Below the pieces are notes generated by a model that did not search any database, was not told the origin of the DNA, and saw nothing but the letters and a program-made list of their open reading frames with translations. From positions 590,603 to 654,602 of the forward strand of contig CAYTKM010000001.1 in NCBI GenBank assembly GCA_964438425.1: a stretch of 64,000 nt of DNA, written 5' to 3'. Below are positions 2,314 to 53,514 of this stretch, in pieces. The first letter of the stretch is position 1. Each line of letters opens with the position of its first letter. The stretch is from an uncultured Gammaproteobacteria bacterium (GTDB lineage Bacteria; Cyanobacteriota; Vampirovibrionia; LMEP-6097). Made by a program: the position numbers and the translations under genes.

Positions 2314-2372
2314 GTTTAAAATATCTTACCAAGCTTACTAAAGTCACTGCTCTTTAAGTAAGATTTTACCTT

Positions 2373-3017
2373 CTATTTATTAGGTATAAGTGCAAAGTGC
2401 TTAGCATTCAGCCAAGAAACATTACCGTTATGTTTGATTTTATACCAACCAGCTTGATCTTTACTAAGCAGTTTGATTATATTTCCTTCTCTTAAAGTAT
2501 AAAGCTCTTGATAATTTTTACTATTACCAGCATAAGTGCTAGCTTCAACTGTGTTAATCACTGCATAGTGGATTAGCTGATTTTCAATATAAATATATGC
2601 AAAATTTAAAATCGAAATGAAAAATATAAATGAAAATAAAGATTTTAGTAGCAAATTTTTAAATTTCAAGCTTATTAAAAAAATGATATTTGCTACAAAC
2701 AAAATTATACTAGCTTCTAAAGCATTAAAATACTGAAAAGTATATAAGTGACTGGTATTTTCATGATGTTTACCGTGAATAACGGCTAGATTATTTAATA
2801 GCTCTTTATTACGTGGAATAAGCTTTTTAGCCTGATATAAGTTTGCTAGCGCGCTGCCTAGTTGCTGATCTTGATAGTCAGCGCTAGCCTGATTAATTAG
2901 CAGATATGGGTTTATCTGGTCCTGCTTGGAGCTGTACTGCTGATACTTTAAATTAGCCTGCTTAAAGTTTTTATTTTTATAGTAAGTGCCAGCTTCTTTA
3001 ATAAGTTTACTATCCAT
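2373..3017 (-). CDS. BatE-like TPR + transmembrane + SH3b protein
   Basis: N-terminal TPR (ALANLYQAKKLIPRNKELLNNL), two hydrophobic helices, C-terminal SH3b-like (LREGNIIKLL..GWYKI...SWL); overlaps the batD-like stop. Confidence 0.7.
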   Translation of the reverse strand: MDSKLIKEAGTYYKNKNFKQANLKYQQYSSKQDQINPYLLINQASADYQDQQLGSALANLYQAKKLIPRNKELLNNLAVIHGKHHENTSHLYTFQYFNALEASIILFVANIIFLISLKFKNLLLKSLFSFIFFISILNFAYIYIENQLIHYAVINTVEASTYAGNSKNYQELYTLREGNIIKLLSKDQAGWYKIKHNGNVSWLNAKHFALIPNK

Positions 3018-4749
3018 ATTTCACCTTCAAAGCCTTAACTAGTGAAAGTGCTTCTTCTTTTAGATCATTAGAAACTAAGTCAACCTCGGTGTTTTGCACT
3101 CCATAGTTAAATTTATTAGTTTTTTCGATAAATTTTTCATAAAGCTCTAAAGTTTCTGGAGTTAACTTTTCGCGCTTTTTCAGTTTCTGGATTAAAGTCT
3201 TAACTTCAGTTGAAATTTCAGTGGTAGAAACAGAACTTTTAATTTTTTTAGTAGTTTTTTTATAGTCTAAACCTTTAGTGTTACTTTTACCAGCCTGCAA
3301 GAGTTTATTTTTAAATTTACGGTTGAGATAATAGATTAGTGCAGCCAAATTCAATATGAAAATAGCGAAGCACACCTGATGAAAATGAATAGCACTCGCT
3401 TGATAACCTAAAATCTGCGCTTCAGGAATAATTAATAAAGCTCGCTTGCTGGCTTCTTTTTTCTTAGTTTTAGAGCCTAGAAATGAGCTTAGCTGCTCAT
3501 CATAGGCGCGCTTACTATGATCAATATTAATAGTAAATTCCTCTGCCGGTATTGTTTGGTATTGTTTTTTAGTAGGATCAAAGTAGCTTATTTCACGGGT
3601 TTTTAGGTTAAACCTGCTAGCATCAGTTTCAGTAATAATAGCGTTTTGAATTTTTTTATAAAAGACTTGTTTATTATTTTGAAAATCTAGATCTAAAATA
3701 TCTTTATCTGTATAAAGTTCATACTGATCACTTTCTTGAATAATGTCTTTAGCAGCGATGAGATTTGGATTACCGACACCTTCAATTTCACTTGCAAGCG
3801 TAATAGCTTCGCCATACAAAATATCTTTATTATCTAAATAGTTTTCTAGGCTAAGTGAACCTACATAGCCTGAAAAGTTTTCAGGAGTTGGCTGAGGTAA
3901 AGCCTGCACCTGCATATAGACAGGTGAAGTGTTTAAAGTTATGTCTTCATCGACTTTAAAACCGATACCAAAACTAAATAAATCACTGCCAGTCTGCGGG
4001 CTCATTAAAGCAACCACATCAACTTCTGTTGCTGGAATTTCCATTCTACCCGTATGGTGCGGATAGAGAATGTAATCTATTTCATAGACTAAATATTTAC
4101 GACCAGCATAAGTAGTTTCATACTCTTTAGTTTTATCCAGTCTCTCATGCAGAAAATCATCCAGTTTGACTTCAGGTAAGTTAATATTTCTCAAGTTACC
4201 TCGATGAAAGATCTTTAGCTTCATCACAACCTGCTGGTTAACATATGGTCTATAGTTACTAATTTCTACTTTTGCAAACAGGCTTTGGGCTGCTCTTTGA
4301 GCCTGGTTAAGTTTACGGCTGCTTTGGCTGACACTGGGTTTACTAATATTTATGCTTTGCGGGGCTGGTTTCGTGCTAACGCTAACAGCGATCGGCTGAC
4401 TGCGATAAATTAGGTTATTAATTTTAATAGAAGCAGAGGGGATGACTATATTTCCAGTTACTTTAGGCAGTAAAGTATAAGTAATTTTTTTAGTTTGGGT
4501 CATATCGCCATTGATCATCTCGATACTCGTACTAGCAGCTTTAGCGATAGCTTTATAACTAGCAGTCTCTACAGGAAACCTTAGATTTTTAGCCTGCTTA
4601 CTATTAATTTCAAAGTTAATAACGATTTTCTCATTTGCCTGGTAATTTTTTTTGTTGACTGAAGCGACAATTTTGTTTTCAGCCAGGCTAGCTGACATAA
4701 ATTGCCAGCACATCACAAATATTAAAATTATTCTAGGTACTTGGTTCAT
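3010..4749 (-). CDS. batD: BatD family protein (oxygen tolerance / Bat complex)
   Basis: Signal peptide; repeated Ig-like BatD units (YTLLPKVTGNIVIP, YILYPHHTGRMEIP, VQALPQP..FSGYVG, EGVGNPNL); C-terminal TM helix. Confidence 0.8.
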   Translation of the reverse strand: MNQVPRIILIFVMCWQFMSASLAENKIVASVNKKNYQANEKIVINFEINSKQAKNLRFPVETASYKAIAKAASTSIEMINGDMTQTKKITYTLLPKVTGNIVIPSASIKINNLIYRSQPIAVSVSTKPAPQSINISKPSVSQSSRKLNQAQRAAQSLFAKVEISNYRPYVNQQVVMKLKIFHRGNLRNINLPEVKLDDFLHERLDKTKEYETTYAGRKYLVYEIDYILYPHHTGRMEIPATEVDVVALMSPQTGSDLFSFGIGFKVDEDITLNTSPVYMQVQALPQPTPENFSGYVGSLSLENYLDNKDILYGEAITLASEIEGVGNPNLIAAKDIIQESDQYELYTDKDILDLDFQNNKQVFYKKIQNAIITETDASRFNLKTREISYFDPTKKQYQTIPAEEFTINIDHSKRAYDEQLSSFLGSKTKKKEASKRALLIIPEAQILGYQASAIHFHQVCFAIFILNLAALIYYLNRKFKNKLLQAGKSNTKGLDYKKTTKKIKSSVSTTEISTEVKTLIQKLKKREKLTPETLELYEKFIEKTNKFNYGVQNTEVDLVSNDLKEEALSLVKALKVKYG

Positions 4750-5069
4750 TTACTAAGCTAATTTAATTATAAGAGACTTTTTCATTATTATCTGCTGCTA
4801 CCATGATAAACTCCATTTTGATCAGGGTACTGTTTTTCGGTGAGGGTTTAAATATAAATTTTCCTATGGTATAGCTTTATTCGTTACTAGTGGCTTTATA
4901 CATTCCGCCAACTAGATTATACAGGTTATAGCCCTAACTACTAAAAACTAAAAATGAAATTATCAATTAATCATTAAGAATTTAACAAAAAATTAGGTAA
5001 TGTGACCTATTTTAGCTATAATTACATTTCGTGTACTTTATCTTGGTTGATCAAGACTAAGTTTTAAGT

Positions 5070-5146
5070 GGCTGGATAGCTCAGTTGGTTAGAGCGGTGG
5101 ATTCATACCCCACAGGTCGGCAGTTCAAATCTGCCTCCAGCTACCA
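5070..5146 (+). tRNA. tRNA-Met(CAT), elongator type, CCA encoded
   Basis: Acceptor GGCTGGA/TCCAGCT+ACCA, D arm GCTC/GAGC, anticodon loop TTCATAC, T arm GGCAG-TTCAAAT-CTGCC; no C1:A72 mismatch; G1-U72 and TTCATACC loop as in Firmicutes-type elongator tRNA-Met. Confidence 0.93.
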
Positions 5147-5301
5147 TTCTTTTAAGATTTTTAAAATTTAAATTAAGCGTAAATCTTAATAAATTACCTA
5201 AGATTATAGGACTAAAATTTACTAAAACCCTAGCTGGCATATTAAGTAACTTAGATTAGAACTATAGATCCCAAACAAGCTTACTGTTATTTTGATATAA
5301 C

Positions 5302-5811
5302 TTAACTCTTATTATAGAACTCAGATTTACTTTGCAGAGCAGCTAAATTCACCGCATAAGCATTTAAGTACTGTGGAGAGTTAATATCTTCTGTCCACAG
5401 AATTAAGGCAGCTTCATGGTTATCTTCATAATATTTTTTGCGAATACCCTGCCTAAAAAAGCCATACTTTTCATAAAGCTTCTGAGCTTTAATGTTGCTA
5501 ATACGCACTTCTAAAGTTAATGCTTTAATTTTATGTTCGTAGGCCTCGTAAATTAATTCAGCGAGTAAAGTTTCAGCTACACCTTTGCGTTTATATTTAT
5601 TAGAGCAAGCCAGAGTCGTAATATGCACTTCGTCTATAATTGACCAGGCGCCAATATAACCCATCACTGAGCCACTACGTTTATCTTCAAAAACTTTATA
5701 TAAACCGATACGATTATCTATTTCACTTGCAAAATTAGAGCGAGTCCAATGCACTTCACCGTAAGCTTCAGCCTCAATTACCATCACTTGATCAAGATCA
5801 GCTAGCTGCAT
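5302..5811 (-). CDS. rimI: Ribosomal protein S18 alanine N-acetyltransferase (GNAT)
   Basis: EVHITTLAC..YKRKGVAE, LTLEVRISNIKAQKLYEKYGF, GIRKKYYEDNHEAALIL. Confidence 0.9.
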   Translation of the reverse strand: MQLADLDQVMVIEAEAYGEVHWTRSNFASEIDNRIGLYKVFEDKRSGSVMGYIGAWSIIDEVHITTLACSNKYKRKGVAETLLAELIYEAYEHKIKALTLEVRISNIKAQKLYEKYGFFRQGIRKKYYEDNHEAALILWTEDINSPQYLNAYAVNLAALQSKSEFYNKS

Positions 5812-5860
5812 GCTGCGAACTTTATATTCGGGCTTGAGCTTGAATAATTCTTGATAGGCT

Positions 5861-6277
5861 TTATGTCTGGTATCCAGGGTAAATCTCCTTAAGTGGGGTC
5901 ATCACAAATTCACGATTAAGCATGCGTGGATGCGGAATGGTGAGTCGAGCATCATCTAAAGTAAGCTTATCGTATAAAAGTATATCAATATCTATAACGC
6001 GCGCACGTTTTCGACCGCGCGCGTCTCGCTCTAAATCAATTTCACGCTCTATCTGCTGGATAAAATCCAGCAATTTATATGAAGATAGCTCAGTAGTAAT
6101 TTCAACTACCGCATTTAAAAATTCGTGTGGACCTGCTGCTTCGATCGGAGGATTTGCCAGGAAACTTGAAATCTTAGTAACTTGTGTGCTTTTATTATTT
6201 AATAGCTTGATAGCCAAATTAAGATTTGCTTGACGATCACCGAGATTTGAGCCAAGAGCTAGGTAGGCGGTATGCAT
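5861..6277 (-). CDS. folK: 2-amino-4-hydroxy-6-hydroxymethyldihydropteridine diphosphokinase
   Basis: AYLALGSNLGDR, FLNAVV, RVIDIDILLY, LTIPHPRMLNREFVMTPLKEI. Confidence 0.95.
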   Translation of the reverse strand: MHTAYLALGSNLGDRQANLNLAIKLLNNKSTQVTKISSFLANPPIEAAGPHEFLNAVVEITTELSSYKLLDFIQQIEREIDLERDARGRKRARVIDIDILLYDKLTLDDARLTIPHPRMLNREFVMTPLKEIYPGYQT

Positions 6278-6307
6278 TACTAAATAGCATTATAGGACTT
6301 ATTTGCG

Positions 6308-7609
6308 TTGGCTTTACTAATATTTTCAATAATTTTTATAAGTCTGGCATTTGCCAGTTTTACAAGTGTACTGAGATATCGAATAGAGCATGATTTAAGT
6401 ATTTTTAAGCCAGCTAGATCTTTTTGTCCTGAGTGCCAGACCACTTTATATTGGTGGCACAACATACCAGTTATCAGTTATCTAATTTTAAAAGGTCGCT
6501 GCTATTTCAATAACTGTAAAATCTCACTAGGTTATTTAAGTTTAGAGCTAAGTTTTGCTGCTGGTATGTCGGCTTTACTAATTTACTTGCATTATTTAGG
6601 TGAGCTTGGTGCTTTAGCTTTACAAGCTGAATTTTATGTTTTTATTTTACTGTTTTTGGCACTTAGTAGTATTTTAGTAGCGCTTGCGCTAATTGACTAT
6701 AAACATAAGTTGATACCTCATAGTCTGAGTTATAGTGGCATTTTGATCGCTATGCTGCTGGCAGCTACGGTGTACCAGCATAATTTCTGGGATATTATCG
6801 CTAAATTCGGGCTTGGTTTTTATGTTTTAGATATGTGGGGTTATTTATTATATAAATTTTACGCTCGCCAGCATCAAGAGCTCTTTGTGCCGCGCGCACT
6901 AACTTTAAATATTAGTTTTTTAAAAAATAAGCCTGAACTGTGCTTGAATTTCTATTTACTAGTGTTTGTAGTGTTGTTTATGCTGGCTCAATATGAGCTT
7001 TTATTCGTGTATTGCAGGTATTTGGGGCTGGCTTATCTGTTTTTAGAGATTATTTGGGAGCTAGCTTGCGGTGATCTAAGTCTAAATTTAGCTTTAAAAA
7101 GTGAAGCGCGCGCGCGTAACTGTGAATCTGAAGCTGAAATCAGTGATATTAGCAGTGAAAATAAAAGTTTATACGAGGTTGCAGCTAATAATAGTGTAAG
7201 TGATATTAGCCCAGACTGTGATAATAAGTACAATCAGCTAAAAGATAAGTATTTACAGGAAAAAAACTCTTTTAAAGTTAATAATATTAACTTTAGTCAA
7301 ATTGAATTAAAATCTAATACATTAGATACCTCTAAACAATTGAAAACCAGCGATGAGCAGGTGAAAACTGCCTGGGGGGGCGGTGATACTGTCTGTCTAG
7401 TACTGCTACTTATGTTAAGTGAGGTTAATATTTTAATACCGATTTTTGTGGTAGCTTTGAGTTTGCAGCTGGTACTTACTTTACTTACGCGGCTTAACCA
7501 AAACTTACATAAAAAAACAGCAACTTCAGGAATTCCACTGGGTCCAGTATTTGCAGTTAGCGGCATACTTGCTATGATAGTTACATTCTTAAGTGACCGA
7601 TTATTTTAA
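6308..7609 (+). CDS. pilD: Prepilin peptidase (A24 family) with a long hydrophilic insertion
   Basis: RSFCPECQTTLYWWHNIPVISYLILKGRC (N-terminal Zn domain), IDYKHKLIP (Asp1), WGGGD (Asp2), IPLGPVFA. Confidence 0.85.
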   Translation: MALLIFSIIFISLAFASFTSVLRYRIEHDLSIFKPARSFCPECQTTLYWWHNIPVISYLILKGRCYFNNCKISLGYLSLELSFAAGMSALLIYLHYLGELGALALQAEFYVFILLFLALSSILVALALIDYKHKLIPHSLSYSGILIAMLLAATVYQHNFWDIIAKFGLGFYVLDMWGYLLYKFYARQHQELFVPRALTLNISFLKNKPELCLNFYLLVFVVLFMLAQYELLFVYCRYLGLAYLFLEIIWELACGDLSLNLALKSEARARNCESEAEISDISSENKSLYEVAANNSVSDISPDCDNKYNQLKDKYLQEKNSFKVNNINFSQIELKSNTLDTSKQLKTSDEQVKTAWGGGDTVCLVLLLMLSEVNILIPIFVVALSLQLVLTLLTRLNQNLHKKTATSGIPLGPVFAVSGILAMIVTFLSDRLF

Positions 7610-8933
7610 ACCAGAGTTAATAGTAGATCTAAGTGAAGAGTTTATCAGGCTTGTTGATGCTGGTAATAGCTATACTTTGCAGATTTTAAGTAAAGAGTTT
7701 TTTGATGCTAAAAACTTTATGGATAGTTTGTGCGACGCTGCCGAGTCGCTTAATTTAAAGCCTAAAGCTGCTAATTTAAAGCTAATTTTACCGAATAAAT
7801 ATCTGTTTTACCAGACTGTAACTTTGCCGGAAGATGCTGCTGATAAAGAGAGAATGACTTTACTAAATATCGAGCTCGATAAAGAATATATAAAAGATTC
7901 ACGCTTCGATTTAATTAGATTGGATTCAAGTGAGCGCAGCGAAGCTAATGAAAAGGTTTGTGATTATTTGGTCTGCGCGGCTAAAACCTCTATCGTAGAG
8001 CTAGTAAAAACCTATAACAAAAACGGTGAGCCTGAGATTATTAGTGCTATGCCAGCTTTCTATGCGTTATATCCACAACTAAAGCGCGCTAAGACCATGA
8101 CTGTGTACTTAGCTAAAGATTCGACCGAAGTTACTCTATGGCAACAAGGCGATCCGATTTCACTTTCTACCCTGCAAGCAAGTGGCGATTCAGCCAGCGA
8201 TATTAATCGTTATTTAGAGAAGTACAATGAGCAATTTGAAGAGTCTGTGTATATCGATAAAGTTGAATTATATGGTCCAGAGATCGATAACTTTTCTTCG
8301 ATGTCATTCAGGCATCCCTTTGCTAAGCACGAAGATTATGATGAGCAGGTTGTAGCTAATTTAGGCAGGATTAAAGAGCATAACGTTCTTAAAGTACATA
8401 AGCTACCACGCGCGCCCATTGTGATGAACACCGCTAACATGATCACTATCGGTGCTTTAAGTTTAACTGCTCTGCTGGTGCTGACGACTATTACTTTGCA
8501 GCTATTTGGCTTAGGTCTGAATAGTAAATATATGAACCTGAAAACCCAGGCAGATAGCTATAATAGTTTGCTAGCACGTCATAAAAGATTAGGACGCGAG
8601 CTGGCTGACCTTGAAAAAGAACACAGCTTTTATCTGGAAATTACTCGAAAAAGAGCGCCATGGAACTTGATTTTAACTGATTTAGCTAAGATGACACCTC
8701 AACAACTATGGTTTGAGCGAATTTCTGCTGCTAAAGATAGTATGACGATTCAGGGCAAAGCCTTAAGTGTAAATGATGTTTCTGCGCTTTCTGTAAACCT
8801 GAACTACAACTCTAAGTATTTCCGTGATGCTAATATCGTAGGCACCCGAGATTACGAAGACCGCCTTAAATATAAGGAGTTTCAAGTAAATACTAAGCTG
8901 AAATCTCCAGTTGATAAATATCAACAAAAGTAA
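7593..8933 (+). CDS. PilM-like + PilN fusion (GspL-type architecture), type IV pilus/T2SS alignment subunit
   Basis: About 270-aa cytoplasmic domain, one TM helix, coiled coil, then PilN signature (PWNLILTDLAKMTPQQLWFERIS...TIQGKA...NSKYFRDA); overlaps the pilD stop. Confidence 0.65.
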   Translation: MTDYFKPELIVDLSEEFIRLVDAGNSYTLQILSKEFFDAKNFMDSLCDAAESLNLKPKAANLKLILPNKYLFYQTVTLPEDAADKERMTLLNIELDKEYIKDSRFDLIRLDSSERSEANEKVCDYLVCAAKTSIVELVKTYNKNGEPEIISAMPAFYALYPQLKRAKTMTVYLAKDSTEVTLWQQGDPISLSTLQASGDSASDINRYLEKYNEQFEESVYIDKVELYGPEIDNFSSMSFRHPFAKHEDYDEQVVANLGRIKEHNVLKVHKLPRAPIVMNTANMITIGALSLTALLVLTTITLQLFGLGLNSKYMNLKTQADSYNSLLARHKRLGRELADLEKEHSFYLEITRKRAPWNLILTDLAKMTPQQLWFERISAAKDSMTIQGKALSVNDVSALSVNLNYNSKYFRDANIVGTRDYEDRLKYKEFQVNTKLKSPVDKYQQK

Positions 8934-46732: not shown

Positions 46733-48463
46733 TTAAGCTCCTACTTTATCAGCATGAACTAGTAAAGTCGGTCGTTTACCAATCTGCTGTCGAATTATCT
46801 TTTCCATATAGTTTTTAACTACTTTTTCGCACTCGTTTAAATTAGTATTAGGGTTGTGTGTAAATAACTCTTCAACTGAATCAATAATAGGCTGAGTGTT
46901 CATCATACAAAAGGCACGCCACTCACGGTTTTTACTAAAAGTGCAGGCTTTAGAATTAAAAATAGGTCCGGCAATAATTTTATTTTTCTTATCAATCGTA
47001 AATGTAATCACTACTATGCCTTCTCTTGACATCAAGTCACGCTCATCGATCACTTCTCCGCTCACTTCATAGTGCACGCTAGAACTAAAGTAAATCTCTT
47101 TATTATCTACTTGATCAACGACTCTTAAAATGTCACCGTCAAACTCTACTTTATCACCATTTTCTAAAATTAAAATTGAGCCAGGATCAAAACTAGCTTC
47201 AACTGCAAGCTTCGCGTGCTGCACTAGATGTCTGGTTTCACCGATAGCTGGGATTAAGTATCTACTTTTAACTACGTTAAACATAAACTTCATCTCTTCA
47301 GTTAAAGCGTAAGATTCAACATTTATACCAGCATTGCGCCCACCGATTAATTTCACTTTCTTTAAAAACAACTGATCAGCAATCTGTGCCATCATACGCA
47401 CAGTACCTGGCGGCAAGTCAGCACTGTTAACTACGGTATCACCAGCTTTTAAACTAGCCTCAGCACTACGATCAAAAGCCAGCGCTTTTAAGCTATCAAT
47501 AGCCTGCATTTCAGGCGCGCTACTTAAAATAAGCACTTTATCATCATCGTAATTTTCAGTATCAAAAATATCAATAAACAGGTCATCTGGTACCTCTAAC
47601 ATGCCTAAATTACGCATTACTTTAAAGCTACGACGTACATGATAATTAAATAAAGCGATTTTTCGTCCATGTTTCAAAGCGATTTTCACCATGGTTTGTA
47701 AACGCAGAAAATTACAATTATAAGTATTGAAAAAGATCCTACCTGGAGCTGTTTTAACTATTTTAGTTAATGGTTCGATCAATTCAAGCTCAGATTTAGA
47801 GTAACCTTCTACTTCTACATTAGCTGAGCAAGCGATAAATAGATCAAATCTACGATCCATCTCAGTTTTATAATCGATATACTCGAAAAAGTGACCTAAA
47901 TCAAACTTACGTTTATCAACAGGGCTTTGGTCAAGCTTATATGAACTAGTATAAAATACTTTATTACCAGCAGCATTTACCATTAAGGCGTATGAATCAG
48001 AATACGGGCTGGTAATATGAAAAGGTACCACTTCAAAACCACCAATATGTAAAGAGATGCCAGTTTCAAAGTCAACCCACTCTATTTTATCGACTAATTT
48101 ATCGGGTAAGTCTAGTCTTATCATCTCTAAAGCTACTTTAGAGCCATAAACTTTTTTAAGATGTAACTTTTCGATGATATGAGTCGCCGCGCCAGCATGG
48201 TGCTCGTGAGTGTTAGTGATTAAAAGTGCTTTGATTTTATCGACCTTATCTTCTTTACATAAGAAGCGATAATCAGCTACACCATAATCTATACTAGGAT
48301 CATCATCACCGTAGTATTTTAAACCAGCATCGACTATTAAATATTCTGTTTCTTCAGGCTTTTGCTTATTAGACAGCTCAAACAGATGCATAGCCTTACC
48401 AATTTCATGTAAGCCACCTAAGGCAGTATATTTTAGACTAGTTTTAGATTGTTTGTTTGACAT
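46733..48463 (-). CDS. rnj: RNase J family protein with a degenerate catalytic site (probable pseudo-enzyme)
   Basis: LGGLHEIGKAM, YKLDQSPVD, beta-CASP and C-terminal MSREGIVVI / IRQQIGKRP are RNase J-like; HxHxDH reads NTHEHH. Confidence 0.8.
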   Translation of the reverse strand: MSNKQSKTSLKYTALGGLHEIGKAMHLFELSNKQKPEETEYLIVDAGLKYYGDDDPSIDYGVADYRFLCKEDKVDKIKALLITNTHEHHAGAATHIIEKLHLKKVYGSKVALEMIRLDLPDKLVDKIEWVDFETGISLHIGGFEVVPFHITSPYSDSYALMVNAAGNKVFYTSSYKLDQSPVDKRKFDLGHFFEYIDYKTEMDRRFDLFIACSANVEVEGYSKSELELIEPLTKIVKTAPGRIFFNTYNCNFLRLQTMVKIALKHGRKIALFNYHVRRSFKVMRNLGMLEVPDDLFIDIFDTENYDDDKVLILSSAPEMQAIDSLKALAFDRSAEASLKAGDTVVNSADLPPGTVRMMAQIADQLFLKKVKLIGGRNAGINVESYALTEEMKFMFNVVKSRYLIPAIGETRHLVQHAKLAVEASFDPGSILILENGDKVEFDGDILRVVDQVDNKEIYFSSSVHYEVSGEVIDERDLMSREGIVVITFTIDKKNKIIAGPIFNSKACTFSKNREWRAFCMMNTQPIIDSVEELFTHNPNTNLNECEKVVKNYMEKIIRQQIGKRPTLLVHADKVGA

Positions 48464-48514
48464 TAAAATTAAAGCTTTAGCTCCAAAGCTGACTAGCCTG
48501 ACTGAGCTAAATTA

Positions 48515-49684
48515 TTATTTTATCATTTGAACCAGTTCTTTAGTGTGACTTGTCATAAATTCATGATAAGCCTTCAATGAAGCGCCCATTTTAAAGTCAT
48601 AACCAAGCTTCGCAAGTGACATTTCAAGTGTACTTAAACCCATTAGCACATCGCGATCTGTAACGAAGCCTAAGTGACCAATTCTAAAGATTTTATCCTT
48701 AAGTTCTTTTTGACCGTTAGCAACTGTAATATGCCAGTCATTTTTAAAACCGGCACGTAGATCAGGAATACTGATACCCTCTGGAGCGTGAATCGCGGTT
48801 ATCGCTGCTGAAGCGCTACTATCCTCTGTTAAAAGCTTTAAGTCTAAAGCTTTTAAACCCGCGCGTAGTGAATCACGCAAGCGCGCGTGTCTCTTATGGA
48901 TGTTTTCTTTACCTTCAGCTTTCATTAGCTGCAAAGCATGCTCTAAAGCTACAATGTGACTGACATTTGGTGTCCATGGTGTCGTGTCGTTTTCAAGAGC
49001 CTTGCGCGCTTGCTGCCAGCAAAAGTAATAATTAGGTGTTTTGCATTCTGATTTAGCTTTTAGTGCTTCTTTAGAAACAAAGATAAAACTTAGACCTGGA
49101 GGAATCATAAAGCCTTTTTGTGAGCCTGAAACCAGTACATCGATACCAAGTTTATCCATTTCAAGTGGCATGCAACCTAAACTAGTTACTGCATCTACCA
49201 TCAGCAGCGCACCATGCTGTTTAATAATAGGAGCGAGCTCAACTAAATCATTAGCAGTGCCAGTGGAGGTTTCAGAGTGAGTAATGGTAACAGCTTTATA
49301 CTGTTTACTCGCTAAAGCAGCTTCCAAGTCAGCTTTTTGAATGCACTCACCAGGCTGCATTTTAATTACATCTTGCTCAGCGCCATATAGTTTAGCGATA
49401 TCAGCAAAACGCTGACCGAAAACACCAATGACCAGTGAAAGCACCTTATCACCTGGGTTAATAGTGTTAGCGATGCCTGCTTCCATAGCACCAGTGCCAC
49501 TTGCAGTATAAATATAGACATCGTTTTTAGTGCCAGCTAGATCTTTTAGCATTTGGTTGGCACTAACGAAAATTTTAGAAAATTCTTTGGAGCGATGACC
49601 GATCGGATGCTTGGCTAATTCAAGCAATACTGATTCGGGTACTGGAGTAGGTCCAGGTATCATTAGAAAATCTTTTTCCTGCAT
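48515..49684 (-). CDS. Class V aminotransferase (alanine-glyoxylate / serine-pyruvate family)
   Basis: LMIPGPTPVP, SGTGAMEA, THSETSTG, VDAVTSLG, SGSQKG (PLP Lys), FRIGHLG. Confidence 0.93.
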   Translation of the reverse strand: MQEKDFLMIPGPTPVPESVLLELAKHPIGHRSKEFSKIFVSANQMLKDLAGTKNDVYIYTASGTGAMEAGIANTINPGDKVLSLVIGVFGQRFADIAKLYGAEQDVIKMQPGECIQKADLEAALASKQYKAVTITHSETSTGTANDLVELAPIIKQHGALLMVDAVTSLGCMPLEMDKLGIDVLVSGSQKGFMIPPGLSFIFVSKEALKAKSECKTPNYYFCWQQARKALENDTTPWTPNVSHIVALEHALQLMKAEGKENIHKRHARLRDSLRAGLKALDLKLLTEDSSASAAITAIHAPEGISIPDLRAGFKNDWHITVANGQKELKDKIFRIGHLGFVTDRDVLMGLSTLEMSLAKLGYDFKMGASLKAYHEFMTSHTKELVQMIK

Positions 49685-49779
49685 TATGTAAGCTATTATA
49701 TCAAGATAAAAAAGCTCATCTTAACGAAATTGAAGATAATTTAATAAATCTTTATGATGCTTTTAGCTAAAATATTTGG

Positions 49780-50706
49780 ATGTCAGCAGCTAGTCTAAAG
49801 CGAGAGGTACAACTAAGAATCAGCGACCCGCGGATTTTGTTAAATGAATTTTTTGGCTATACATCTTTTATTACAGGTTTACTGACAGCTTTATTTCTAG
49901 TTTTAGGTAATGAGCAGATGTATCAGATTTTAAATCAGATCGTGCTGGCTTCATCTGGTTTGCAAAACATTCCGCTTTTAATGGTCTATATTCCCCAGTA
50001 CCGTCTCTTGCTAGTGACTGGTATTTTAGGTATCATCGTTACTAATTATTTTGCAACTAATCCTATCGGTAATGCTTTTAGGGAAGGATTATTTGTAGCG
50101 TTTGTCAAGCTGGATTATAGCTACGAAGCCTTAGTTAAGTATTACCCTGAAAAATATAAACCAGAGAAATCTTTTCTAAAAGGTTCACTATTAATTAAAA
50201 ACTTTTTTAAATATATAAGCTTAACAGTTGATGAAGCTATTAAGCGTAGTTTAGAAATGAGTTTAAAACTCTTAAAGGGTGATTTTAAAAGTCTAGTAAC
50301 TGATGCTGTGCGCTCACAATACTTTAGTAGTGTACTTAGAATTATTAGTGCTTCGCCTTTGTTTGCGATCGCAGCTATCGAAACGCTCGCTTACTTTAAC
50401 CTGGTTGAAAAAAGTCAAAGCTACGAGCAAATATCTCAGTACTGGACGACAGTTTCAGTAAGAGCACTTGCTTTTAGTAGTTTTATCGATGGTCTATCTA
50501 AGGTGGCTTTCGGTTTTATGCGTGAAAGCTTTATGATGAAACTGGGCGGAGTAATTTTCGCGCTTGCTCAGCTGTATCTAATGTTTATGGGTGAAAGTAG
50601 TTTGCAGTTAGTTATTCCACTATCACTTGCTGGTCTCGCTGCCTATCCGATTGTAGAAAGTGAGAGACTTAGAAAGTTAAGTTTAGAGCCGATAGCTGGT
50701 GAGTAA
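49780..50706 (+). CDS. Hypothetical integral membrane protein
   Basis: 308 aa with several hydrophobic helices; TAAAAT 6 nt before the ATG. Confidence 0.7.
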   Translation: MSAASLKREVQLRISDPRILLNEFFGYTSFITGLLTALFLVLGNEQMYQILNQIVLASSGLQNIPLLMVYIPQYRLLLVTGILGIIVTNYFATNPIGNAFREGLFVAFVKLDYSYEALVKYYPEKYKPEKSFLKGSLLIKNFFKYISLTVDEAIKRSLEMSLKLLKGDFKSLVTDAVRSQYFSSVLRIISASPLFAIAAIETLAYFNLVEKSQSYEQISQYWTTVSVRALAFSSFIDGLSKVAFGFMRESFMMKLGGVIFALAQLYLMFMGESSLQLVIPLSLAGLAAYPIVESERLRKLSLEPIAGE

Positions 50707-51576: not shown

Positions 51577-53514
51577 ATGTATCTAGCTCCGCTTATATTT
51601 GCAATCGTCTATTATTTAGCAGCGCCAATTACTTTAAGCTATGTAAGTGGTCACGCGCTAGCACTATTAGTTAGTCTAACTCAGCTACATAAACTAAGCT
51701 CTAAATTAGTATTTTGGTTAGTATTTATTTTTACTAATCTTTTTTCAGCGCACTCTAGACTTAGTTTAGAGTACTTATTAATTATAAGTTCGATGCTGAT
51801 GATAGCTGATTCTAAATCATGGCTAAAGCTAAAATTTACTAAACAAATCACTGTATTGATTCTGTGTTTTAGTGCATTGTGGCTAGCAGATAATCTGAGG
51901 CATGTATATTATGAAAGAGGTAGCCTGGTAGTATGGTTACCTCTTTTTTTGGCTCTGTATTTAAATCAACCACTTTTTAAAGCTAAAGTGAGCGATCAGC
52001 AGGTTGCTGCTAATCAAGCTGACGCTAAAAATGAAACGGTTTTGCAAAAATGGTCTTTGTTTAAGATAGGAGAAGGATTTTTTAAAAGCGCTGCGAAGTT
52101 TTTACCTCAATTTAGACATATAATAAATTTTATTGCTGCTATTTTAAGTGTCATTAATAACAAAAAAACCACTTTAATCGCTTTTGGCGCTCATTTATAC
52201 TTAAATTATAAAAATAAATTTATAACTGGACTATTATTAATAAGCTTGCCAGCAGCTTTTTTCGTTAAAGATAGTTTAGCTAGATTCTGGAAAGTGTCGA
52301 TGGAAGCCAGGTTATATGTGTATCAAGCGGTTTTTAACGGTATTTTAGCTAAACCTTTAACTGGACACGGCTTTGGTACTTTTACTCTTGACTTTCCTAA
52401 ATATCGTTTGCATGCAGGGGCGTTTGGCACGCATGCTAGCGAGCAAGTCGGGCACGCGCATAATTTATGGTTGCATTTTGCTTTTGAGCTGGGAATGCTA
52501 GGGCTGGTATTAATGCTTGCTTTAAGTTATCTAGTATTCAAGCTTGAAAAAAAAGCCTTAGTACCTTTTTTAGTTATTACGCTGTTTGATATGCCACTTT
52601 CAGGCTTTAATCACTACGCTTTACTTGGCTTGATCCTAGCGCCTTTAATTTACCAAAAACTTTATTTAGCTGCTGGTTTAGGTGAAAATAGTGATGTTGC
52701 TAATTTAAAAAGTGAATCTGACTTCCGTGATGTGAAAGTAGCGGCTGATAGCAGTTATAGTGCTAATTTGAAAAGTGAGGCTAGCTTTAATACTTCTCAG
52801 AAATTAGCTAGTGATAGTAATAGCAGTGAGCTTAATAATAAAGTTTATATTAGAAACACTGTGGGTGTTACCGAAAAACAGCTATCAAGTACAGCAAATA
52901 GAGACCCAATTTTAAAATACTTATTTTATGATATTAGTCACTGGGGCTGGCATTTAAGATTTGCTTTAAAACTTAGTTTATATATAATCGCACTTTATAT
53001 TTTTATACCAAGTTTAATTGGGCACTTTTATTATGATGCTGGCAAGTTAAATCAGGCTTTAAGGTGGGATAGCCAGCAACCTTTATATTATTTTGCGCGC
53101 GCCTCGCGCGATCTTGAAAGTGCGCCGGCGCGCGCGCTAACAGATTTAAGGCATGCGGTAAAGCTGGCACCGAGCGTGCCTTATTTTCATGGTTTTTTAG
53201 CTGCGGCTGAACTTAAGGCTGGTACATTAATAGCAGCAGCTAGGCACAGTAAACTTGCCTTGAAACTAGGAGGACGTGATAGCTACTGGCTTTTACTTCA
53301 TGGTATTAGTCTGCAAGCTTTAGATAAAAAATCTCAAGCTGACTTTTATTTGAAAAAAGCTTTTAAAAAAGATATTCACCTAAAAGATGTACTAGCTAAC
53401 CCTAAGCTCGGTTCATATAAATTTATCGGCTCTAAAAAAGCTGATCCACGTATAGCAAGCTTTTACCGTCAGGGAGATAAAGTTTATCTGCCACTGCCGT
53501 ATATAGAACACTAA
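51577..53514 (+). CDS. O-antigen ligase (Wzy_C)-like membrane protein with C-terminal TPR
   Basis: Multi-TM; RLYVYQ...KPLTGHGFGTF...HAHNLWLHFAFELGMLGL; TPR-like tail (ALTDLRHAVKLAPSVPYFH). Confidence 0.75.
   Translation: MYLAPLIFAIVYYLAAPITLSYVSGHALALLVSLTQLHKLSSKLVFWLVFIFTNLFSAHSRLSLEYLLIISSMLMIADSKSWLKLKFTKQITVLILCFSALWLADNLRHVYYERGSLVVWLPLFLALYLNQPLFKAKVSDQQVAANQADAKNETVLQKWSLFKIGEGFFKSAAKFLPQFRHIINFIAAILSVINNKKTTLIAFGAHLYLNYKNKFITGLLLISLPAAFFVKDSLARFWKVSMEARLYVYQAVFNGILAKPLTGHGFGTFTLDFPKYRLHAGAFGTHASEQVGHAHNLWLHFAFELGMLGLVLMLALSYLVFKLEKKALVPFLVITLFDMPLSGFNHYALLGLILAPLIYQKLYLAAGLGENSDVANLKSESDFRDVKVAADSSYSANLKSEASFNTSQKLASDSNSSELNNKVYIRNTVGVTEKQLSSTANRDPILKYLFYDISHWGWHLRFALKLSLYIIALYIFIPSLIGHFYYDAGKLNQALRWDSQQPLYYFARASRDLESAPARALTDLRHAVKLAPSVPYFHGFLAAAELKAGTLIAAARHSKLALKLGGRDSYWLLLHGISLQALDKKSQADFYLKKAFKKDIHLKDVLANPKLGSYKFIGSKKADPRIASFYRQGDKVYLPLPYIEH

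Follow-up and report, generated by a model that had tools for sequence, protein, structure and literature searches.

The 64,000-nucleotide (nt) stretch of DNA analysed here (the window; contig CAYTKM010000001.1 of GenBank assembly GCA_964438425.1, positions 590,603 to 654,602) comes from a member of the Vampirovibrionia (Melainabacteria), a group of non-photosynthetic relatives of cyanobacteria. On its minus strand, at positions 46733..48463, lies an open reading frame (ORF) of 576 amino acids (aa) with an ATG start that encodes a degenerate paralog of RNase J, here called degJ. The protein retains the three-domain architecture of RNase J along its whole length, has lost most of the residues that hold the two catalytic metals, evolves under purifying selection and coexists with a second, intact RNase J gene (canJ) in the same genome. 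We consider it somewhat better than an even bet, at a probability of about 0.55, that degJ is a non-catalytic partner or regulatory subunit of active RNase J and would form a heteromer with it, much like RNase J2 of the Firmicutes or CPSF100.

Catalytic centre and fold of degJ

The two metals of Deinococcus radiodurans RNase J share the aspartate of motif IV as a bridge; the remaining ligands are the first and second histidines of motif II with the histidine of motif III for one metal, and the aspartate and last histidine of motif II with the histidine of motif C for the other (PMC4477667). This gives a scheme of seven ligands, with H-x-H-x-D-H in motif II, H in motif III, D in motif IV and H in motif C. 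We read the motifs of degJ against canJ, with which it shares 23% identity over 566 collinear residues, and against the RNase J of Helicobacter pylori; the two comparisons agree. Motif II, canonically HGHEDH, reads NTHEHH in degJ, while motif III changes from NHS to TSP, motif IV from HSGDFK to YTSSYK, motif A from SDSTN to ACSAN, motif B from HVSGHA to NVESYA and motif C from PCHGE to PAIGE. The positions of the first metal (motif II His1 and His3, motif III His) are N, H and S, those of the second (motif II Asp5 and His6, motif C His) are H, H and I, and the bridging aspartate of motif IV is replaced by serine. This means that degJ keeps two of the seven ligands, that one aspartate has become a histidine and that the bridge is gone, which leaves the protein well short of the seven-ligand scheme. 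A preliminary description of this DNA had given the readings NTHEHH, YTSSYK, NVESYA and PAIGE and had proposed that most zinc ligands are lost. The four readings proved exact, and two further losses, of the motif III histidine and the motif A aspartate, can be added to them.

The same pattern recurs in related sequences. Among 35 degenerate copies, the first histidine of motif II, the histidine of motif III and the aspartate of motif IV are missing throughout (0/35 for each), and the aspartate of motif I is the sole active-site position that is conserved. The 34 canonical sequences compared with them keep every ligand. As the losses recur in 35/35 members of one clade and all ligands are kept in 34/34 canonical sequences, the degenerate pattern is not due to chance. 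The complete absence of those three residues also indicates an early loss of the first metal site and of the bridge. Decay of the second metal site came later and was uneven. The motif C histidine and the motif II aspartate are absent from all 22 copies of the order to which this genome belongs, the motif C histidine is kept in 6 of the 13 degenerate copies from outside the order (0/22 inside), and the position of the motif II aspartate is occupied by seven different residues within the order. Motif II as a whole varies among orthologs, with SPNYRH, SVHEYN, SVDDFH and NTHEHH all represented. A metal site rebuilt from alternative ligands was considered and rejected, as the replacing residues differ between orthologs and no conserved alternative set that could restore a two-metal site was found. 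Judged from these substitutions, two-metal nuclease activity of degJ is very unlikely.

The preliminary description had also called the architecture of metallo-beta-lactamase (MBL), beta-CASP and C-terminal domains intact and full length, and this is borne out by profile searches and structure prediction, in which degJ is collinear with RNase J from end to end. The MBL domain spans residues ~1-235 and 371-455, the beta-CASP domain ~236-370, and the linker and C-terminal domain ~456-576. The NCBIfam model TIGR00649 aligns over positions 2-544 of 546, with a score of 281.9 bits against a curated cut-off of 400, and the J1 model NF047419 scores 302.6 bits against a cut-off of 820. Pfam recognises RNase_J_b_CASP (6.8e-20, residues 241-365) and RNase_J_C (3e-9, residues 471-569), and Lactamase_B_2 reaches 24.7 bits, under its cut-off of 27. 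The closest solved structures by sequence are H. pylori RNase J (9.8e-58), Bacillus subtilis J1 (7.8e-57) and Staphylococcus epidermidis J2 (~1e-55), so J2 is not favoured over J1 or the H. pylori enzyme. The AlphaFold2 (AF2) model, built from a 79-row alignment, has a mean pLDDT of 91.6 and a pTM of 0.83, and Foldseek aligns it to RNase J chains with TM scores of 0.77-0.88 over ~570 columns. As the alignment given to AF2 included canonical homologs, a good fold model was to be expected; the predicted structure is consistent with an intact architecture and is uninformative about activity.

Paralogy, descent and selection

The genome (2.78 Mb in 20 contigs, 92.65% complete) carries canJ on contig C5. 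This 611-aa ORF scores 561.5 bits against TIGR00649, has all motifs intact and matches Pfam Lactamase_B and RMMBL. The search for a second, intact rnj, which the preliminary description had suggested as a check, was therefore successful, and degJ is not the sole rnj of its genome. The combination of ligand loss with an active-type paralog in the same genome is the one seen in inactive beta-CASP partner subunits.

Of 24 genomes of the same family, 23 carry an ortholog of degJ (41-51% identity), as does the one further genome of the same order that was searched; the family member without one (G021) is 88% complete. To place these in a wider frame we surveyed 121 genomes of the class. An RNase J match is present in 73 of them, and 68 of these 73 have two or more. 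In six families (f1, f2, f4, f7, f8 and f9 in our numbering) there is typically one match above and one well below the score of canonical RNase J. Five genomes have a single match, one of which (in G015) is a contig-end fragment of a canonical copy, and both genomes of family f3 have one RNase J copy only. Outside the class, all 90 phylum genomes have a single RNase J gene, which in one of them is split over two contig ends. The degenerate copy is nearly always accompanied by one canonical copy. In four other families of the class (f5, f6, f10 and f11), none of 48 genomes, mostly 92-99% complete, has an RNase J match, so that active and dead copies are absent together.

To investigate the descent of the degenerate copies, we created a phylogeny of 69 chosen sequences, namely 22 degenerate copies from the order, 13 degenerate copies from other families, 28 canonical sequences from the phylum and six from other phyla. 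The 35 degenerate copies form one clade (SH-aLRT 100), which is nested in the clade of cyanobacterial RNase J (support 99) and thus has a single origin. Within it, the branching order (f4 with f9; f8; f7; f2 with f1) mirrors that of the canonical copies. The simplest reading of this tree is that one duplication near the base of the class was followed by vertical descent.

The f3 copy (genome G026, locus L049, positions 5965..7674) is a separate case. It has the canonical motifs HAHEDH, GDFK, HVSGH and HGD, and in the tree a long branch places it next to the degenerate clade (SH-aLRT 92). Its placement with the canonical clade is not rejected by the approximately unbiased (AU) test (p-AU 0.338). 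It may represent a member of the second paralog line that has stayed active. A number of database records that hold a degenerate rnj of the Melainabacteria type are labelled Gammaproteobacteria, Chloroflexota, Proteobacteria, Actinobacteria, Bryobacterales or Planktothrix (L077, L080-L082, L109, L111, L121, L122, L129 and L150, among others), which probably reflects errors of labelling or binning. The close relatives of degJ carry the labels Caenarcanales/Caenarcaniphilales, Melainabacteria or Vampirovibrionia.

Pairwise Nei-Gojobori estimates of the ratio of nonsynonymous to synonymous substitution rates (dN/dS), in which several pairs are saturated (dS > 1), lie between 0.035 and 0.108 for degJ (8 pairs), with 0.059 at dS 0.36 and 0.046 at dS 0.49 in the least saturated pairs. 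The corresponding values are 0.019-0.065 for mfd, the gene that follows degJ (7 pairs), and 0.034-0.060 for canJ (2 pairs). Together with the retention of the gene across the class, this agrees with the earlier proposal that degJ is not decaying. The gene nevertheless evolves about twice as fast as canJ in the same species, with a median tree-distance ratio of 1.95 and a ratio above 1 in 152 of 153 pairs.

The two paralogs also differ in where they are conserved. Over the same seven species (21 pairs, mean identity), the N-terminal MBL part has an identity of 0.52 in degJ and 0.75 in canJ, and the beta-CASP domain 0.51 and 0.75, respectively. In the linker plus C-terminal domain the relation is reversed, with 0.59 in degJ against 0.44 in canJ, and in residues 496-520 it reaches 0.83 against 0.34. 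This last segment holds the order-wide motif GP.F.A.ACTFS.NKEW..FC, of which W515 is invariant in 35/35 degenerate copies; in the AF2 model it runs from the last part of a strand through a loop into a long helix (513-536). The comparison indicates that constraint has moved in degJ from the catalytic domains to the C-terminal domain, which is the dimerisation domain. In D. radiodurans RNase J, removal of the C-terminal domain abolishes the homodimer (PMC4477667). Relative to canJ, degJ is conserved best in this domain, which is an indirect hint of a heterodimer.

The mfd link and gene neighbourhood

Directly downstream of degJ lies mfd, which encodes the transcription-repair coupling factor (43176..46730, minus strand, 1184 aa from a TTG start). 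The gene is complete, with a TIGR00580 score of 1000.5 bits (cut-off 800) and the Pfam domains UvrB_inter, CarD_TRCF_RID, DEAD, Helicase_C and TRCF. The junction of the two genes (46728..46742, minus strand) reads TAA-AG-TTG, with the stop codon at 46735..46733 and the start codon at 46730..46728, which leaves a 2-nt spacer. An AGGAG at 46742..46738 lies in the last codons of degJ, 7 nt before the TTG, a putative start that was chosen by the ORF lister. This layout suggests translational coupling.

On the same strand, mfd lies 3' of degJ in all 21 loci of the order, with spacers of about -4 to +23 nt by first-start-codon calls. In a separate scan it follows degJ in 23 of 26 close relatives, which are all of the informative ones, as the other three contigs end right after degJ; many contigs are common to both scans, and the two counts are not independent. 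Beyond the order the link disappears: mfd was found in the flanks of none of 54 more distant degenerate loci and near none of six annotated degenerate loci at class level. The coupling to mfd claimed in the preliminary description is thus real in its 2-nt spacer and holds, as adjacency, throughout the order, but it does not extend to the class. As no distant locus has mfd, the link is a feature of the order and is younger than the paralog and its conserved C-terminal residues. We also looked in Mfd for an innovation that could serve docking, comparing 12 sequences of the order with those of five other families. No order-specific indel was found, and the 21 fixed substitutions are mostly conservative. 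In one genome (G009, locus L036, positions 2316..4007 and 4319..5998), two ORFs of 563 and 559 aa stand in place of a single mfd next to the degenerate rnj, and the cause could be a frameshift, a genuine break or faulty assembly.

Upstream of degJ, 51 nt away, is a class-V aminotransferase gene (48515..49684, minus strand; Pfam Aminotran_5, 1.7e-35). It is probably the first gene of the degJ cluster and occupies this place in only 4 of the 21 loci (L016-L019). The best promoter-like match (10/12, with TG) is at 49724..49695. Over positions 42500..50200, promoter-like sites (21, with 23.2 expected in shuffles) and terminator-like sites (3, with 4.6 expected) are not enriched. After mfd there is an AT-rich gap of ~460 nt. 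A hairpin at 48476..48511 (minus strand), between the aminotransferase gene and degJ, has an outer stem of 8 bp (UUUAGCUC / GAGCUAAA) and an inner stem of 5 bp, and a U-rich stretch comes after it. Its 71-nt fold has an energy of -15.4 kcal/mol (z -2.0), and 6 of 200 shuffles fold equally well; it could be a weak attenuator or an element of processing or stability. In three metatranscriptome runs, next to none of the sampled sequence words were present.

In other families, the flanks of the degenerate copy (24 ORFs at six loci) showed no common context except in family f8. There, a gene for a SpoU-family RNA methylase lies directly after or overlaps the degenerate rnj at both loci (L037, 6945..7460; L039, 5434..5964), and a gene for a periplasmic binding protein precedes it at both, a context unlike the mfd link. 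Neighbours in the remaining families include RNase III, CofD, an HD-GAF protein and DNA ligase. Elsewhere in the window, two abutting ORFs of 1007 aa (39691..42714) and 793 aa (37309..39690) lie downstream of the mfd cluster on the minus strand and match no Pfam family at E <= 1e-5. On the plus strand, a 645-aa membrane protein (51577..53514) has an O-antigen-ligase match (Wzy_C, 2.1e-11) in its first half and a long C-terminal half without assignment.

With regard to RNA decay and termination, no Rho was found above the family cut-off in this genome (best match 66 bits against 509), and RNase Y was not found (19 bits). One RNase E/G is present (C1:832139-833296, 378 bits). RNase J1 has been described in a review as dissociating stalled elongation complexes by a torpedo mechanism (PMC8501993), and a preprint on cyanobacteria, which lack Rho, reports a moderate increase in read-through at defined 3' ends when Mfd is lost (PMC12642595).

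Possible roles of degJ

Firmicute RNase J2 (rnjB) resembles degJ in that it accompanies a fully active RNase J as an additional paralog, its active site is weakened and the role proposed for it is mostly structural. The two also share the three-domain fold, with a Foldseek TMt of ~0.9 for the degJ model against J2 chains and of 0.82-0.85 against the J2-J1 integrative model 9a5v. Their origins are probably independent, however, as the degenerate clade lies within cyanobacterial RNase J (support 99, in a tree without J2 rows). To our knowledge, J2 has no link to mfd. J2 is also less degenerate, as the preliminary description had expected. It retains nuclease activity, its motif in Staphylococcus aureus reads HGHEHA (PMC3937233), and it binds one Mn through the five ligands H76, H78, H80, H144 and E166, of which H80 and E166 are essential (PMC11815676). 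In degJ of this genome the equivalents are N, H, H, S and S, so that two of the five remain and the single-Mn site of J2 is not reproduced. In S. aureus, an active-site mutant of J2 grows like the wild type and has no phenotype, whereas deletion of J2 does have one, and a structural role was proposed (PMC3937233).

A second parallel is found in CPSF100/CPSF73 and IntS9/IntS11, where an active MBL/beta-CASP protein has as its obligate partner an inactive paralog whose metal ligands are lost. The complexes that contain these pairs, CPSF and Integrator, act on nascent transcripts at RNA polymerase. The homology is distant, with a Foldseek TM of ~0.5 to CPSF73 and to a chain of the Integrator cleavage module, the C-terminal domains are unlike, and heterodimerisation of degJ is a proposal. 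PMC8501993 draws an analogy between the CPSF/Integrator pairs and J1/J2, and names active:inactive beta-CASP pairs from bacteria such as MG139/MG423 of Mycoplasma genitalium, SA0940/SA1118 of S. aureus and DRA0069/DR2417m of D. radiodurans. None of the pairs named there is from Cyanobacteriota or Melainabacteria. The pairing of active and inactive paralogs of RNase J or of beta-CASP proteins is therefore already known from the literature. In the limited collection of literature searched, we found no report of RNase J in Melainabacteria or Vampirovibrio, and no mention of the lineage, of ligand loss this deep, of constraint shifted to the C-terminal domain or of coupling to mfd.

The preliminary description had proposed a pseudo-nuclease with a candidate role as scaffold, RNA-binding regulator or heteromer subunit, an interpretation that the analysis supports. 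A non-catalytic partner of active RNase J fits the data best, because degJ is under strong selection, co-occurs almost obligately with the canonical copy and has its constraint concentrated in the dimerisation domain. Under this explanation, one old duplication in the Vampirovibrionia lineage would have given rise to degJ, which would then have lost its two-metal centre while purifying selection kept a non-catalytic job. It would be joined to canonical RNase J by way of its C-terminal domain, on which RNase J dimerisation depends, and, in this order, would be co-expressed and probably translationally coupled with Mfd. Several points weigh against this explanation. We infer the binding of degJ to canonical RNase J, and the conserved patch in the C-terminal domain could be there for a different partner. 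A heteromer also leaves the order-wide linkage to mfd unexplained. One genome (G053, 93% complete) shows a copy of the degenerate type only, even when searched with a canonical profile, which may reflect a gap in the assembly or a genuine counter-example. The tree was a quick IQ-TREE run under LG+G4 with SH-aLRT as its only support measure, and it included no Firmicute J2 rows. Finally, the catalytic inactivity of degJ is read from its sequence alone, and some of the substituted positions are themselves conserved within the order: motif III has Ser in 22/22 copies, the first position of motif II has Ser in 21/22, and the Ser position of motif B is Glu or Asp in 18/22. As these positions are conserved, a different chemistry retains a small probability.

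Such a chemistry, with degJ still acting as a nuclease or hydrolase using one metal as in staphylococcal J2 or none at all, would be in keeping with the frequent retention of motif II histidines in the order (position 3 in 17/22 copies, position 6 in 19/22), with the histidine that replaces the motif II aspartate in this genome, as in the S. aureus J2 motif (PMC3937233), and with the conserved Ser, Ser, Ser/Thr and Glu/Asp that line the former site. We nevertheless regard it as highly improbable, as too few of the Mn ligands of J2 (PMC11815676) have equivalents left, the motif II aspartate position is so variable within the order and the 35 copies have only the motif I aspartate in common. A J2-like one-metal site in particular is unlikely, because the equivalent of E166 is Ser, Thr or Asn in 22/22 copies of the order. 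That degJ is a pseudogene in the making would account for its faster evolution and its score under the family cut-off. This is scarcely credible and was rejected on the low dN/dS and on retention: every complete locus has an open frame of full length, the gene is kept in six families of the class, and the structure model is confident. More room can be given to a stand-alone RNA-binding or regulatory protein on an RNase J scaffold, independent of both active RNase J and Mfd, although we find this doubtful. It would agree with the strong selection, with the predicted retention of the fold and RNA-channel architecture, with the apparently solitary copy of G053 and with neighbours that vary between families. 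However, motif B (HVSGH), which handles the 5'-phosphate and scissile phosphate, is degenerate as well, and its frequent change from Ser to Glu or Asp is unfavourable for phosphate binding. The strongest constraint is moreover in the dimerisation domain rather than in the domains of the RNA cleft, and both copies are nearly always present or absent together.

The remaining explanation takes the mfd link at face value: degJ would work with Mfd as an adaptor that binds RNA or RNA polymerase and ties the release of stalled polymerase by Mfd to disposal of the transcript, with or without recruiting active RNase J. It is compatible with degJ as a partner of RNase J, to which it would add a role. 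The fixed same-strand adjacency, the 2-nt spacer with its AGGAG, the lack of a Rho above cut-off, the torpedo activity of RNase J1 (PMC8501993) and the effect of Mfd loss in Rho-less cyanobacteria (PMC12642595) all point in this direction. On the other hand, only one order has the link, which is younger than the conserved C-terminal residues W515, A506 and F509; the Mfd of the order has no specific indel and only 21 fixed changes, mostly conservative; and operon neighbours often do not bind one another. A role at stalled transcription complexes is suggested by gene order, which is its only evidence, and we hold the adaptor to be unlikely. Less likely again is its full form, in which the dead RNase J, made in a fixed ratio with Mfd, binds nascent RNA or polymerase at stalled complexes and brings in active RNase J. 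If true, this would couple polymerase release by Mfd to 5'-3' destruction of the transcript, a "torpedo plus pusher" in a lineage without Rho, and bacteria would have an equivalent of the CPSF73/CPSF100 arrangement that operates at termination in eukaryotes and archaea.

Inactive beta-CASP partners such as CPSF100 and IntS9 are central to eukaryotic 3'-end processing, whereas the known bacterial cases are mainly Firmicute J2, which is still weakly active. Close homologs of degJ in metagenome-assembled genomes of Melainabacteria or Cyanobacteria are annotated as 'ribonuclease J', a label that overstates their probable function and is a concern for annotation. Within the Melainabacteria, degJ is ancient and under strong selection; it probably evolved independently of J2 and is disabled far more completely, which makes it a clean natural setting in which to study the work of an RNase J subunit without catalysis. 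The invariable pairing with mfd throughout one order provides a testable lead on how bacteria without Rho dispose of stalled polymerases and their transcripts.

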